Notes: generated by a model not told the origin, from the sequence alone. Numbered from the stretch's first letter, positions 27,687-45,952 are shown. The stretch is 64,000 bases of DNA from an uncultured Thermoplasmatales archaeon (GCA_964346655.1 CAYFVP010000126.1:7877-71876), one strand, 5' to 3'. Numbers and translations are program-made.

Positions 27687-30068
27687 CTATAATAATCCTT
27701 GAATAAATCTTAGTTTTAATGTTACTTTTATAAACTGTTTAACTAAATTCATTAATTTATTAACATTAAAAGCTTTATTTCTTGGTATATTTACTTTTAA
27801 AGGATCAGACCATTCACTTATTAAATCATTAGAATCTTTGGCTCTTGCTTTTATCTCATAACTTGCTTTTTCTGTCCAAATATGACTTGCTTCGCAGATC
27901 TCTCCCGATTCATATGGACCCAGCCAACCTGAGTCTGAACCATCACCCCAATCAAATAAATATTGTATCTCGTCATTATCTGGATCGTTTGTACTAGTAG
28001 AATATGTATATTGCTCTCCAATTATTCCAGAATCAGGGCCTATTGGTGTACTTGGTTTATCAGGTTTAACTCCAATGAAAATTCCTTCAAGCGTTAATGA
28101 TGGATCACCATAGAGATTGAATGTATAAAGATCATTATATTCCACCCATTCATACCAATCAAAATTAACGTTACAGTAATGCTTCGAATTATATAGTGCC
28201 TCCCCTACTTTTTGGGAATGACTGATTAAATATCTATTGAATTCATAAATAATTGAATATGAAGCGCCAGGATTCATTGGCCAATCTGATGTTCCATATG
28301 GGGCTCTTGCTGATGAAATTACACCAACAGAAGCACCATAAGATGGTTTTGTTAAAAGATCAATTCCCATATTCCCAAAGTTATTTGGTTCAGGATAACC
28401 AACATAACATGAAATACAGGTAACAACCGATGGATAGTCGTCATCTAAATTTGATGAGGTGGAAAGAAGATTTGGCCATGATATTTCATTTGCCTCAGGA
28501 ATATCATCTCCATCATCCCAAGTCCAAACCTTTCTAGCAATACGATCAGAAAAGCCATGGGCTCCCCAGTTGACAATTGAGTATTGTCCAGTTCGCCAAT
28601 CATTAGAAAATGATGATTCACTCAATGGATTCCATGGATAAATTGATTTTTCAAGGCCTACTTGTTCACTATAATGACTAACAGTCCATCCATCCATGAA
28701 ATCATTTTCAATATAAGCACAGCATGTAGCACCATCCATCGCAGGTTCTCCAATCCCTAGTTCATCAGTAAAATAGAAAAAAGCACCGGGGTGTAATGCA
28801 TGTTGTTTCCAATCGCTGATATCCTGCTCAAAGGAAACAGTTTTTTCAAGAGTATAAATTATTCGTGATGGATTATTAATTGGAATACGACCAACATAGA
28901 TTTCTGGAAAGAAATCAGGCATATCATGACCATACTCTCCATAATAACCATCACCATCTAAATCCCAGGAAATTGAATCAGAACTTGATAGATCTGCATA
29001 ATAATAATCAGTTGGAACCTCTCCGCCATCTCCACCAGGAGTTCCAGCGGTGTTTTTATGATTATATGGATCAGGATAACAATATCTCATTGGAACAGTC
29101 TCATAATCGCCCACGATAAGTACATACTCAATATTCCAATCAATATAATATTCTCTAAGAAAATTACGGACCTTTTCTGCAAGATCGTTACCAAACTGAC
29201 TTGTAATTTCAGAATCTGAAACATTAACAATTTTAATATTATATCCTATCGTATTTTTCCAGGATATAAAGTTAGTTGAGGTAATTGCATCATAAAGATT
29301 ACCTGATGTAATGATTACATAATTATATGTATCGTCTTTAGAATTAGAAATAAAATATTTAGGCTCATATAATTTTTTTATTTCATCATAATTTACAAAA
29401 AGATCTTGTGCTTTTTTATCAGCAAGACTGTCCCATTTGATCTCTTCAATATTATCTTGTGATGAAAAAGTATAATTGATAGTAATCTGAGCGGAATCAT
29501 AACGAATAAGTTTTCCTGATTTTGGATAATATTTAAAGGGATAAATTGAAACTAAAACATATAAGTATTTTCTAAAAGAACCTGAACCAAGAAGTTTTCC
29601 AGGCTTACTAGGATAAGGTTCATCAGATAAATATACTAAATTATAATTATTCAGCCACTCATCTTTAAACTTGCTGAGGCTATTTTGCTTTGAACCATCT
29701 AATGGAACAATATTAGAATTTGGAATAATATAATACCTATCTGGTAATTCTTCTGCATTTATTCCCTTAATATCTACAGAATGAACTTTGGCTCCAGGAG
29801 GTAAAGCAATCAAAACATTTTTACAAGGGAGTAATGGCTTACCAGGTTCCATTAAATAATTGTAATTATCCATTATTATTTTTTGTCCATTTTCACAACT
29901 TTTTATTTGATATTCATCATTGCTTGGAAAAAATTCGGAATAAATTATGGATTCAAAATTACCATCTATCTGTAAAGCCTTTATTAAATTATTATGTGAA
30001 GAAACAGTAGCTCCAAAGTAGGTTGTTACTAAAAGTAACACTATTACAAATGTAAAAATCTTCTTCAT
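27687..30068 (-). CDS. Secreted gingipain-like (peptidase C25 family) protein with C-terminal PKD-like module
   Basis: 793 aa; signal peptide; 'VLIVGDYETVPMRY', His 'NWGAHGFSD' and Cys 'CISCYVGYPE' motifs in C25-like order; C-term 'YLFDWGDGSDSGW'. Confidence 0.6.
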   Translation of the reverse strand: MKKIFTFVIVLLLVTTYFGATVSSHNNLIKALQIDGNFESIIYSEFFPSNDEYQIKSCENGQKIIMDNYNYLMEPGKPLLPCKNVLIALPPGAKVHSVDIKGINAEELPDRYYIIPNSNIVPLDGSKQNSLSKFKDEWLNNYNLVYLSDEPYPSKPGKLLGSGSFRKYLYVLVSIYPFKYYPKSGKLIRYDSAQITINYTFSSQDNIEEIKWDSLADKKAQDLFVNYDEIKKLYEPKYFISNSKDDTYNYVIITSGNLYDAITSTNFISWKNTIGYNIKIVNVSDSEITSQFGNDLAEKVRNFLREYYIDWNIEYVLIVGDYETVPMRYCYPDPYNHKNTAGTPGGDGGEVPTDYYYADLSSSDSISWDLDGDGYYGEYGHDMPDFFPEIYVGRIPINNPSRIIYTLEKTVSFEQDISDWKQHALHPGAFFYFTDELGIGEPAMDGATCCAYIENDFMDGWTVSHYSEQVGLEKSIYPWNPLSESSFSNDWRTGQYSIVNWGAHGFSDRIARKVWTWDDGDDIPEANEISWPNLLSTSSNLDDDYPSVVTCISCYVGYPEPNNFGNMGIDLLTKPSYGASVGVISSARAPYGTSDWPMNPGASYSIIYEFNRYLISHSQKVGEALYNSKHYCNVNFDWYEWVEYNDLYTFNLYGDPSLTLEGIFIGVKPDKPSTPIGPDSGIIGEQYTYSTSTNDPDNDEIQYLFDWGDGSDSGWLGPYESGEICEASHIWTEKASYEIKARAKDSNDLISEWSDPLKVNIPRNKAFNVNKLMNLVKQFIKVTLKLRFIQGLL

Positions 30069-30226
30069 TATTTTACCTCCAGCTTTTTTTAATTACAATA
30101 TAATATAAGATATCAATAATTAAAACTTAACATTAATAATTTATACAAAATAATTAAAAAGTAAATTGAAATTTTAATTTGTTCAAAATTATTGCATTAG
30201 ATATTACTATTAATACCTAAATAACC

Positions 30227-43750: not shown

Positions 43751-45952
43751 TTATGATTGAAAGTGAAATATTATTTTAAATATTTCAGATATTTGAATTT
43801 GTTTTAATAGGAATTGAATGATTGCTTTATTATGTCTGATCTTGACTCTTGGAATAGTTACTTTTAATGTTCCCCAATCACTTTGTTCTCCATGACTATC
43901 CTCTGCTTGAGCTCTAATAGTAAAAGATCCTTCTTTTGTCCAGTTGTGCGAAGCATTAGCTTTTGATCCTGATGGAAAAACCCCTATTGCCTCTTCAATT
44001 CCATCTCCCCAGTCTATGTTATATGATAGATAATCGTTATCTATATCATTTGATACAAATGTATATTCATACTTAATACCTGGTTTTCCCTTATCAGGTC
44101 CATCAATTTCAGGTGTGCTTGGGGGATTGTTTATTTCAAAAATCTGAGCCCAAGTTGAATCACGAATAATTATCTCCTCTTGATCTATAACAGTTAAAAT
44201 AACAGTAAAGTTACCTTCGTTATCATAAGTATGTAATGGATTTTGTTCATTAGATGTTTCACCATCTCCAAAATCCCAAAGAAAATCATATGGTTCAGCA
44301 CCATTTTCTGCCGAACCTATGAATTGTATAGGATTACTAATAAAGCCTTGGTAAGGTCCATTTGCATCTACATTATAACCAATGATAGTAAAATCCGAAT
44401 CTGAAATTGCTATTGCACTCTCAGATGAGGTTGTAGCAATAATTTTAATTCTACAATTATCAGTTCCTCCTGCATCAACCAACCATTGATAACAGCCATT
44501 ATTAGGTAAATTATTAGCAATAGTCCTCCAGGAACCAGATTCACCATTTGTAGATACTTGGATTTCTATTGCCGAGTCATCTTGTGAAGGCGGAATTGCA
44601 GATAACCATCGAATATTACGAATAGATCCACTTCTAAATGTTTCTCCTCCATGAGGACTCGATATAAGAGCTGTTAGTTCAGTTGGTTCAAGCCATGGGG
44701 AAAAAGCCCTCAACACATTTTGATACGAAGGCCAACTACCCTGCTCCCCTTGTATAACAATGTCCTCGCGACCATCATGATCAAAATCACCATCAACAAC
44801 AAATGCAGAATAATAACCAGGTGAGGACATTGTAAATGTAGCATCTGATTCCCAATTACCATTTCCATCACCTAAATATACGGTACCAATAGGCGCATTA
44901 TATGCAATAATATCAAGAAAACCGTCTCCATCAATATCACCAAATTGTGGATAATAGGAACCACTATCAGGTAAACCATCTGATGCAGATACCCATTTGT
45001 CAGTTTGTTTATCAAACTTATAACATTTAACTCCTGAGGATCCTGGACCAAAAACTAAATCATCACAACCATCATTATTCATGTCTCCACAATCAATCCC
45101 ATTATAATTTCCACCTGGAAGACCTTCTTGATTCATTGTAAAATCAAAAGTGCCATCTCCAATAAAGACATAAGTTCCCCAACGAGTTCCAACAAAATCG
45201 GGATAACCATCGGAATTAAAATCACCTACCTCAAGGTTTTTGTAAACATTTCCATCTGTTAATGACCATTTATGACTCCATGTGCCATCTCCATGATTTT
45301 CATAACAATGATATCCATTGCAACAACCAAATGACATAGAAATGATATCAAGAAGACCATTACAATCAAAATCAGCCAGATCAGTTGAAAACATGCCCCA
45401 GGTTTCACCACCAGTACCAAGTCCTTCAGCCCATCCAATCCAATTAGATGTTGTTCCATCTCCTAATGCCGCACCTATTAATGTGTCACCAAAGCCTGGT
45501 TCTCCCCAATTATGATGTATGCCCCAGACTACATCAAGATAGCCATCTAGGTTAAGATCTCCGGCTTCAATACCGCCATAACCAAAATCACCAACTTGAA
45601 TAACAGACCAAATGCTATCTCCATCACCAAGCCATACCATAATTCCATGTTGAGCACTATTAACATAAGGTGATCCATGATCACCAACACATATAATATC
45701 TAAATGTCCGTCATTATTGATATCAGCAAGTTCTAATTCAGTACCCCCTCCCTCTTTTTCAGGTGTATCAAGTCCTGTTGATTTAGGTATTAAAGTCACA
45801 AGGTTGATAGATTTAATAAAATTATTCACCTCAAAATTTTTTTGTTGTGAAACGCTACTGAAACCATTTAAAGATAAAGTTGAGAGAAAAAACATTATAG
45901 TTAATATTATAATAATGTATTTTTTTATATTATTATTTTTCATGTTATACAC
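43751..45952 (-). CDS. Secreted FG-GAP/VCBS (integrin-alpha-like) repeat protein with C-terminal PKD-like module
   Basis: 733 aa; >=7 'DxNxDGxxD' repeats (DINNDGHLDI, LNLDGYLDV, DFNSDGYPDF, DMNNDGCDDL, DIDGDGFLDI, DFDHDGREDI); C-term 'YNIDWGDGI'. Confidence 0.7.
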   Translation of the reverse strand: MYNMKNNNIKKYIIIILTIMFFLSTLSLNGFSSVSQQKNFEVNNFIKSINLVTLIPKSTGLDTPEKEGGGTELELADINNDGHLDIICVGDHGSPYVNSAQHGIMVWLGDGDSIWSVIQVGDFGYGGIEAGDLNLDGYLDVVWGIHHNWGEPGFGDTLIGAALGDGTTSNWIGWAEGLGTGGETWGMFSTDLADFDCNGLLDIISMSFGCCNGYHCYENHGDGTWSHKWSLTDGNVYKNLEVGDFNSDGYPDFVGTRWGTYVFIGDGTFDFTMNQEGLPGGNYNGIDCGDMNNDGCDDLVFGPGSSGVKCYKFDKQTDKWVSASDGLPDSGSYYPQFGDIDGDGFLDIIAYNAPIGTVYLGDGNGNWESDATFTMSSPGYYSAFVVDGDFDHDGREDIVIQGEQGSWPSYQNVLRAFSPWLEPTELTALISSPHGGETFRSGSIRNIRWLSAIPPSQDDSAIEIQVSTNGESGSWRTIANNLPNNGCYQWLVDAGGTDNCRIKIIATTSSESAIAISDSDFTIIGYNVDANGPYQGFISNPIQFIGSAENGAEPYDFLWDFGDGETSNEQNPLHTYDNEGNFTVILTVIDQEEIIIRDSTWAQIFEINNPPSTPEIDGPDKGKPGIKYEYTFVSNDIDNDYLSYNIDWGDGIEEAIGVFPSGSKANASHNWTKEGSFTIRAQAEDSHGEQSDWGTLKVTIPRVKIRHNKAIIQFLLKQIQISEIFKIIFHFQS

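Follow-up and report, generated by a model that had tools for sequence, protein, structure and literature searches.

A C-terminal helix-kink-helix tail on secreted proteins of Thermoplasmatota archaea, with degenerate copies in one gene cluster: a candidate surface-retention tag

In a stretch of 64,000 nucleotides from an uncultured Thermoplasmatales archaeon (GCA_964346655.1 CAYFVP010000126.1:7877-71876; 'the window' denotes this stretch at its full length), six proteins with signal-peptide-like N-termini end in a basic P-R-x-[KR] motif and a tail rich in hydrophobic residues (Table 1). The six are a C25 peptidase, a 398-residue protein of unknown family, a BPL_N/GATase-like protein, a C10 peptidase, an M14 carboxypeptidase, and an FG-GAP repeat protein; their tails close with GLL, LLI, CSF, SMM, FRI, and FQS. 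Among the six-frame open reading frames (ORFs) of at least 60 residues in the window, P-R-x-[KR] is found only eight times, and these six occurrences lie 26-38 residues ahead of the stop codon. At 30% GC we estimate about 8% stop codons per random codon, so that six open extensions of 26-38 codons are not due to chance; the four cases that follow PKD modules are not independent of one another, since the modules are paralogous. A sequence-only reading of the window had pointed to five of these C-termini as a candidate sorting signal, and the ORF listing and six-frame scan bear out all five in sequence and position; it missed the sixth, the 398-residue protein, which ends in RTPRAK plus 38 residues, and it counted 28 residues after the PRNKAF of the C25 protein, where there are 26. 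Its view that unrelated proteins share a PKD-like module ahead of the tail agrees with Pfam, which assigns unrelated catalytic or repeat domains (C25 with propeptide, BPL_N/GATase-like, C10, M14 with NosD, FG-GAP), while the four modules are homologous and have the PKD fold. The C25 gene illustrates the layout: signal peptide (the N-terminus is MKKIFTFVIVLLLVTTYFG), propeptide, catalytic domain, PKD module, tail.

Table 1. Coordinates of the tailed genes, their C-terminal modules and tails in the window, and of the classical CTERM-type endings found in other loci.
Feature	Position	Strand	Evidence or remark
C25 (gingipain-family) cysteine peptidase gene	27687..30068	-	Pfam Peptidase_C25 1e-36 and Propeptide_C25
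C25 tail PRNKAFNVNKLMNLVKQFIKVTLKLRFIQGLL	27690..27785	-	stop at 27687-27689
PKD-like beta-sandwich directly upstream of the C25 tail	27786..28043	-	weak Pfam PKD_4 and PKD matches; aligns with the other three modules
398-residue signal-peptide protein gene	30227..31423	-	no Pfam/NCBIfam family; tail after non-PKD beta domain
398-residue protein tail PRAKTVGFGTLFLERFYNFLQRFYILIPNFLKQSNRIDILLI	30230..30355	-	absent from the earlier list
GATase-like/BPL_N-domain secreted protein gene	31600..32802	-	Pfam BPL_N 2.7e-26
GATase-like (BPL_N) tail PRYKEKINSICFKLPYILIYAFFSLIRLCSF	31603..31695	-	sole window tail at transmembrane grade
PKD-like module of the GATase-like protein	31696..31953	-	alignment with the other modules
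C10 (streptopain/interpain-family) peptidase gene, including downstream frame	34884..36506	+	Pfam Peptidase_C10 2.4e-33 and Inhibitor_I69
In-frame TGA between C10 peptidase and its C-terminal beta-sandwich and tail	36207..36209	+	downstream frame 36210-36506
Tail downstream of C10 peptidase PRNRHKDIIIQRFFNDNFFLLSLLKLLSMM	36414..36503	+	follows second, non-PKD beta-sandwich type
M14 carboxypeptidase gene with CarboxypepD_reg and NosD/beta-helix regions	40854..43652	-	Pfam
M14 carboxypeptidase tail PRTKYLYNSLLTSLFQSYHRINLILKIILNFRI	40857..40955	-	short-form profile 7.0 bits
PKD module of the M14 protein	40956..41213	-	phmmer against PDB 4XED, 4.9e-21
FG-GAP repeat/PKD secreted protein gene	43751..45943	-	Pfam FG-GAP_3 8e-29 and PKD_4
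FG-GAP protein tail PRVKIRHNKAIIQFLLKQIQISEIFKIIFHFQS	43754..43852	-	AlphaFold helix
PKD module of the FG-GAP protein	43853..44110	-	AlphaFold beta-sandwich, pLDDT 96-98; Foldseek top match 4XED
Classical CTERM-type ending	L039 6078-7694	-	
Classical CTERM-type ending	L018 2016-3218		
Classical CTERM-type ending	L043 2139-2861	-	
Classical CTERM-type ending	L067 10145-10870		
Classical CTERM-type ending	L075 15171-15872	-	

The four PKD-like modules are 31-47% identical to one another and share an invariant DWGDG motif. The AlphaFold model of the FG-GAP module has PDB 4XED as its top Foldseek match (E=2e-8, root-mean-square deviation 0.9 Å, 45% identity), followed by collagenase PKD domains; the Pfam PKD score lies above the gathering threshold for the FG-GAP protein and below it for C25. 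By its beta-sandwich fold and its WGDG motif the module upstream of the tail is a PKD domain. [quoted passage not shown] The construct that was crystallised has ...LEVTMPK as its end, at the very point from which the tail would continue, so that no structure has yet shown the tail; since the domain is complete without it, the tail is an appendix outside the PKD fold. That it might form part of this fold is ruled out, as it also follows other domains and 4XED folds tail-less.

A profile built from the four module-plus-tail ends of the window matches 560 proteins, the named ones from Thermoplasmata metagenome-assembled genomes (MAGs), and the ends of these proteins reveal a motif that is much better conserved than the window tails. 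Its consensus is [ST]-M-P-[KR]-N-K-x-I-N-T-P-F-L-x-F-L-E-x-[HF]-P-x-x-F-P-[LI]-L-R-Q-L-L-G-L-COOH. The tail is thus about 30 residues long and has two parts: a short, basic linker, usually [ST]-M-P-[KR]-N-[KR]-x-I-N-T-P, and a helix-kink-helix unit, F-L-x-F-L-E-x-[HF]-P-x-x-F-P-[LI]-L-R-[QY]-L-L-G-[LY], which is usually the end of the protein. A tail-only profile (33 positions, starting from S-M-P), searched exhaustively against 1.84 billion cluster representatives, finds 833 of them at E<=1e-3; the match lies within about 10 residues of the protein end in 148 of the 150 best matches, the two exceptions being multi-stretch repeat proteins. In a sample of 1.04 Mb, made up of Thermoplasmatota MAG loci and the window, a hidden Markov model (HMM) of the tail matches 126 ORFs, 124 of them at most 10 residues from the stop codon. 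The extreme C-terminal position claimed for the element from the window alone therefore holds in both scans, and it is kept with some precision: among 111 tails that can be anchored on 'FP', 69% end exactly 10 residues past the F. One of the two non-terminal matches in the loci (L008 4760-7279, plus strand) has a canonical tail, ...FLNILERFPNLFPILRYIMG, after which the protein continues for about 200 residues, including a linker rich in Pro and Glu and a further domain; loss of a stop codon may have fused two genes here.

Conservation is highest in the helices. Information peaks at 3-4.3 bits over [FL][LF]E.[FH]P..FP[IL]LR.LLG; the P[KR]x[KR] positions carry about 1 bit family-wide, and the dibasic is missing from 50 of the 126 tails (which have, for example, MPYSYNP... 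instead). 'IPRxK', which the sequence-only reading took for the signature of the element, is thus the part that this lineage has retained, the conserved core being the helix-kink-helix, which has decayed in this genome. These 50 tails also make it less likely that Arg/Lys-specific cleavage at the dibasic is universal in the family.

The tails of the window are degenerate local copies descended from the canonical form. Since their own profile scores are weak, this homology is established through a series of orthologues. An HMM of canonical tails only gives the window tails at best 5.0 bits, which is not significant; an HMM of short-form tails, built without any window sequence and scored against 112 window ORFs, places the C25 tail (8.6 bits) and the M14 tail first and second. 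The C25 orthologues of 68-73% identity form a graded series that runs from intermediate to canonical tails: P0280 (73% identity) has the tail NIPRYKAKNSNILMSLFERLTKLFVNLGFILQ, ending ...LFERLTKLFVNLGFILQ; P0281 (69%) has TIPRNRIFYKSSFLKILDRLSTIFPILRYLLGK, ending ...STIFPILRYLLGK; and P0284 (68%) has SMPFNKAFNFNFNLLEWLFERFPNVFPILRHMLGL, ending ...FERFPNVFPILRHMLGL, so that the canonical core is still present at 68-69% identity. A similarly intermediate tail, TMPKDKQIIKSVFSKLLENFPAVNLLIKYLLIFKFLL, ends the FG-GAP orthologue of Thermoplasmatales archaeon bin14, which is 70% identical and syntenic. By our own count, the tail of the window C25 protein is about 50% identical to that of P0016, versus 75% for the neighbouring domain.

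The tail is modular and occurs on exported proteins of many kinds. A signal-peptide-like N-terminus is found in 96 of 104 carriers, versus 200 of 523 other ORFs of the same loci; the carriers comprise PKD, NosD/beta-helix, FG-GAP, and PQQ-propeller proteins as well as peptidases of families C25, C1, C13, C11, S8, and C10. At least four kinds of domain precede it: the PKD-type sandwich; a second sandwich with the pattern ...F.G.I.VVN..D..D...I.VSL.TPKNK, which is the one in the downstream frame of the window C10 gene and which carries canonical tails in other genomes (for example in P0157, P0165, P0185, and P0229); 'GGY...D.WLIKTD.NG' repeats (P0204, P0244); and the beta-domain of the 398-residue family. 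The sequence-only reading had named a restriction to paralogous PKD modules, together with the lack of a sorting enzyme and of processing, among the findings that would speak against a sorting signal; the last three kinds show that no such restriction exists, and that the element is genuine and moves between families, as it had proposed. The 398-residue protein consists of a long helical region and then a small beta domain, and has 43 homologues of 37-76% identity; those with complete C-termini, P0429 excepted, retain a patch of basic residues and, after it, a helical tail, in a family-specific form ('...R.K..GFGNL..ER.Y.FL.R.Y...PNFF....RIDILLI'). Not every secreted PKD protein of the cluster is tagged, as seen from a large PQQ-propeller protein with four PKD domains (46152-49184, plus strand), which ends without a recognisable tail. 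It has a tail-like stretch inside, around residue 813, whose score is in negative bits and not significant.

The tag is specific to archaea of the phylum Thermoplasmatota, of the MBG-D/Thermoprofundales type. Scanning one genome per GTDB species with the core pattern P[HNY][LMA]FP[LI]L[RQ][QY][LI] gave 254 matching stretches, 180 of them confirmed. The best 78 loci come from 32 assemblies, and almost all bear a Thermoplasmata, Thermoplasmatales, or Thermoplasmatota label (SM1-50 and M11B2D, both MBG-D MAGs, are among them); the exception is one 3-kb 'Heimdallarchaeota' contig. Copies can be dense, one MAG having at least 17 tail ORFs in 135 kb.

Modelling suggests that the tails are helical, rich in hydrophobic residues, below transmembrane grade, and partly amphipathic. 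In AlphaFold models a canonical tail forms two helices of 8-9 residues each, separated by a three-residue kink with Pro, at a predicted local distance difference test score (pLDDT) of about 90; the linker has a lower value, about 76. The FG-GAP tail of the window is predicted as one helix (residues 92-115 of a 116-residue model, block-mean pLDDT 84-92). Maximal Kyte-Doolittle hydropathy over 19 residues is 0.2-1.3 for the canonical and five of the window tails (1.31 in the FG-GAP protein), below the transmembrane-grade threshold of 1.6, and reaches 1.71 in the GATase-like one. Net charge is +1 to +5, with the basic residues ahead of the helix, on the extracellular side, and no basic C-terminal end. 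The tails had been called K/R-rich and either hydrophobic or amphipathic: the basic and hydrophobic character is evident, the hydrophobic moment exceeds that of shuffled sequences only in the tails of the C25 (p=0.017) and 398-residue (p=0.032) proteins, two of the six.

As far as curated libraries and the searchable literature show, the tail is undescribed. Five canonical tails have no match in Pfam or NCBIfam at E<=10, and the window tails none in searches of the window proteins against NCBIfam (E<=0.1) and Pfam (E<=0.01), in keeping with the earlier statement that the motif matches none of the sorting signals named there. Literature searches on the tail motif, on archaeosortases and sorting signals of Thermoplasmata, on MBG-D anchors, and on 4XED returned no description; a genomics paper on Thermoprofundales lists the same peptidase families as extracellular and leaves the tail unmentioned (PMC6461988). 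The tail does resemble the archaeosortase and exosortase signals (PGF-, PEP-, Heimdall-/Loki-, and IPTL-CTERM): it lies at the extreme C-terminus of unrelated signal-peptide proteins, is lineage-specific, occurs in many copies per genome, and falls near their length of about 25-35 residues. It differs in build. In CTERM signals a short motif is joined by a transmembrane helix of strong hydrophobicity and, at the very end, a cluster of Arg/Lys, whereas in the tail the basic residues come ahead of a helix-kink-helix that is weakly hydrophobic; the tail ends in L-L-G-L and matches no curated CTERM model. The sortase-, exosortase-, or archaeosortase-like layout that had been read into the window endings does not hold up, as five of the six fall below transmembrane grade, the basic residues precede the helix, and the end is not basic. 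Classical CTERM endings are present in the same MAGs: five proteins (Table 1) end in TPGFE ([ST]PGFE), a strong transmembrane helix (Kyte-Doolittle 2.9-3.8), and KKKK or RRKK, and match the NCBIfam Heimdall-, PGF-, or Loki-CTERM models with 17-26 bits (20-26 for the PGF and Heimdall endings), at or near the cut-offs. These serve as a positive control: since the curated models catch the CTERM endings and not the tail, the tail is separate from the classical archaeosortase-type signal, and the MAGs that carry it probably run an archaeosortase-type system as well. A sortase signal, with an LPXTG-like pentapeptide followed by a hydrophobic span and a basic tail, is likewise not found in the tails.

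Other systems offer partial parallels. [quoted passage not shown] We know of no outer membrane in the tail carriers. In homologues of the window C25 protein from outside Thermoplasmatota, the C-terminal slot is taken by dockerin (for example in Zixibacteria), Por_Secre_tail (PF18962), FlgD_ig, Big_7, or IPTL-CTERM; in these homologues (P0307-P0398) the localisation module is swapped while the catalytic core is still about 50-60% identical. Since dockerin, T9SS, and IPTL-CTERM modules stand there elsewhere, this slot is a site of lineage-specific localisation modules. Type-I dockerins, which sit at the very position of the tail in the Zixibacteria-type homologues, are also non-catalytic C-terminal modules and tether diverse hydrolases to surfaces non-covalently through cohesins; they are, however, duplicated calcium-binding loops of about 70 residues (PF00404), and the tail, a helix-kink-helix some 20 residues long, has no such motif, with no match to the duplicated F-hand model in window proteins or canonical tails. 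We know of no cohesin-like partner of the tail. Amphipathic-helix anchors, as in PBP5 and PBP6 of E. coli, are terminal helices at the outer face of the membrane that do not span it and belong to Sec-exported enzymes; the pestivirus Erns protein is another exported enzyme with such a C-terminal anchor (PMC3937272). The C25 and 398-residue tails share with them a significant hydrophobic moment and a net positive charge. Amphipathic anchors have no sequence motif across families, whereas conservation of the canonical tail extends to individual residues and most of the tails tested are not significantly amphipathic. More speculatively, the order of a linker and a moderately hydrophobic end without a basic stop loosely resembles a glycosylphosphatidylinositol (GPI)-type signal; C13 and C25 peptidases are common among the tail carriers.

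No enzyme recurs beside the tail genes in an all-against-all clustering of 850 ORFs from the 78 loci, where the commonest untailed neighbour is a helix-turn-helix protein of about 175 residues, found in 7 of them. Of the 52 multi-pass proteins scanned from 1 Mb of flanking loci, the 25 commonest Pfam families are transporters, UbiA and similar proteins, and one PrsW protease; no exosortase, archaeosortase, or rhomboid is among them. The window ORFs scanned contain no exosortase or archaeosortase gene either, as the sequence-only reading had noted. As a rule sortase genes are not linked to those of their substrates, and the search covers flanking loci and not whole genomes, so this is a weak negative.

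On balance we lean towards reading the window endings as degenerate copies of a C-terminal localisation tag of Thermoplasmatota, about 30 residues long, that holds exported proteins at the surface non-covalently. Both the retention function and its non-covalent mode are what we infer; the latter is favoured since the tails lack the features of transmembrane-sortase signals and the degenerate window tails keep their physico-chemical character only. Fused directly behind a terminal beta-sandwich, most often PKD, on Sec-exported proteins of many unrelated families, the helical tail would, once its enzyme or adhesin has been exported, hold it non-covalently at the cell surface, embedded in the membrane's outer face or bound to a putative surface partner. 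In the window lineage, the core has decayed to straight, K/R-rich hydrophobic helices, leaving the basic junction (PRxK), the length, and the helicity; since no more than these remain, a mainly physico-chemical anchoring at the membrane surface fits this genome.

Several points weigh against this account. The residue-level conservation of the canonical tail and its fixed distance to the C-terminus indicate a specific protein partner, be it a receptor or an enzyme, and not generic lipid binding; the protein may also be cleaved at the linker. The hydrophobic moment is not above that of shuffles in the other four window tails, nor in three canonical or short-form tails, so that a pure in-plane amphipathic anchor, significant for two tails only, has to be downgraded. 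The window tails match profiles built without them weakly, at 2-9 bits, and the taxonomic range is biased towards the canonical form, since the scan pattern was taken from the canonical core.

Cleavage is the substance of an alternative that we regard as unlikely: a dedicated enzyme would cleave within the P-[KR]-N-[KR]-x-I-N-T-P linker, or close to it, and release the protein or transfer it to a lipid or glycan, following the logic of archaeosortase and PGF-CTERM, of PorU and the T9SS C-terminal domain, or of GPI transamidase. The candidate enzyme could be a clan-CD peptidase of family C25, C13, or C11; PorU is a C25-family and GPI transamidase a C13-family enzyme, and such peptidases are abundant in these genomes. 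The tail has the hallmarks of computationally found signals, namely numerous carriers in a genome, confinement to a lineage, a strictly C-terminal location, and signal peptides on the carriers; the residue-level conservation and fixed end, the T9SS and IPTL-CTERM signals in the slot of bacterial C25 proteins, and the linker, whose pLDDT predicts it to be accessible, point the same way. Against this stand the missing transmembrane-grade helix and terminal basic cluster, a conservation that peaks in the distal helix and not at the putative cleavage motif with its weak and often absent dibasic, the lack of a recurrent enzyme gene near the 78 loci or of a candidate among the frequent multi-pass families, and the separate PGF- and Heimdall-CTERM signals of the same MAGs.

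Somewhat less probable still is a docking peptide, a kind of mini-dockerin, in which the helix-kink-helix would bind a receptor domain of a membrane or surface-layer scaffold and so array hydrolases without cleavage; this overlaps with the surface-retention account that we prefer and differs from it only in having a protein partner instead of the membrane. It would explain why the whole 20-residue unit is conserved, with invariant F-P, L, R, and G and a free C-terminus, and it agrees with the well-defined AlphaFold geometry and with the type-I dockerins at this position in Zixibacterial and other C25 homologues. No candidate receptor has been identified, however, and several lineages, including that of the window, have drifted in sequence while keeping length and hydrophobicity, which makes a stereospecific interface unlikely unless the partner was lost or has co-evolved.

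We give little credence to the tail being a propeptide or structural appendix that has no part in targeting, be it an intramolecular chaperone, a latency peptide cut at the dibasic, or a relic of PKD duplication. Four of the six window cases do sit on paralogous PKD modules, tails evolve faster than the adjacent domain, and P0429 has a Ser-rich stretch in place of the tail; but the tail occurs on enzymes, adhesin-like propellers, and beta-helix proteins without a common catalytic need, follows the unrelated domains described above, is kept at a fixed length and end across 32 genomes and 833 clusters, and is dispensable for the folding of the PKD domain. An ordinary stop-transfer transmembrane anchor is very improbable: I, L, and F abound in the tails, and the hydropathy of the GATase-like and FG-GAP tails is suggestive, but the other window tails and all canonical ones stay below 1.6, canonical tails hold E, H, R, Q, and two prolines and have helices of just 8-9 residues each, the positive charges lie at the outer end with no cytoplasmic basic stop, and the genuine transmembrane-plus-basic endings of the same MAGs score far higher.

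Some further features of the window concern individual genes. The C10 gene is broken by a single in-frame TGA, and no other in-frame TGA occurs among the remaining window genes examined. The window reads SSID*EIVSYPTWG at this site, where P0229 has SFLDWEIESHPIWG, with Trp at the position of the stop (LDWEI); the TGA could be a nonsense mutation (making the gene a pseudogene), a sequencing error, or a read-through site. A predicted seven-helix membrane protein without Pfam or NCBIfam match (49201-49902, minus strand) sits between the secreted-protein cluster and a cluster of sugar-nucleotide and glycosyltransferase genes (50485-63559), and has a 56%-identical homologue near a tail gene in the Thermoplasmatota MAG CSMAG_2652 (L048 2383-3099); its FGDGITGIVRN stretch is tentatively reminiscent of polyprenol-kinase-type enzymes. 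A secreted coiled-coil-like protein and an adjoining membrane protein with a C-terminal winged helix (DUF7343/MarR-like) are encoded at 38504-39277 and 39383-40144 (both minus strand); the pair is kept, at about 53% identity, near tail genes of another Thermoplasmatota MAG (L057 18205-19137 and 19248-20003), and may regulate the secreted-enzyme cluster from a membrane-tethered position.

Beyond retention as such, we entertain as a tentative possibility that the tail addresses proteins to a surface-attachment system of MBG-D/Thermoprofundales-type archaea that is yet to be discovered, in which a dedicated receptor or transpeptidase would recognise a C-terminal peptide that is not transmembrane and fix dozens of hydrolases to the cell; by analogy with PorU or GPI transamidase, a clan-CD peptidase of family C25 or C13 would be a possible enzyme. 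If so, archaea would have a third means of anchoring proteins, in addition to archaeosortase signals and lipoboxes. A compact tail profile would serve as a new marker by which to predict the surface proteins of an uncultured phylum, give a handle for finding a partner by phylogenetic profiling, and correct annotation, such protein ends being currently unannotated. MBG-D/Thermoprofundales are among the most abundant archaea of sediments, and the carrier organisms are uncultured. These sediment archaea are thought to remineralise detrital protein by secreted C25, C10, C11, C13, and M14 peptidases (PMC6461988), and peptidase families credited with this role are among the tail carriers. If the surface-attachment system exists, the 'extracellular' peptidases to which protein degradation in marine sediments is attributed would be cell-bound; whether such enzymes are tethered or released alters models of extracellular activity, of the return on enzyme investment, and of 'cheating' in sediments.

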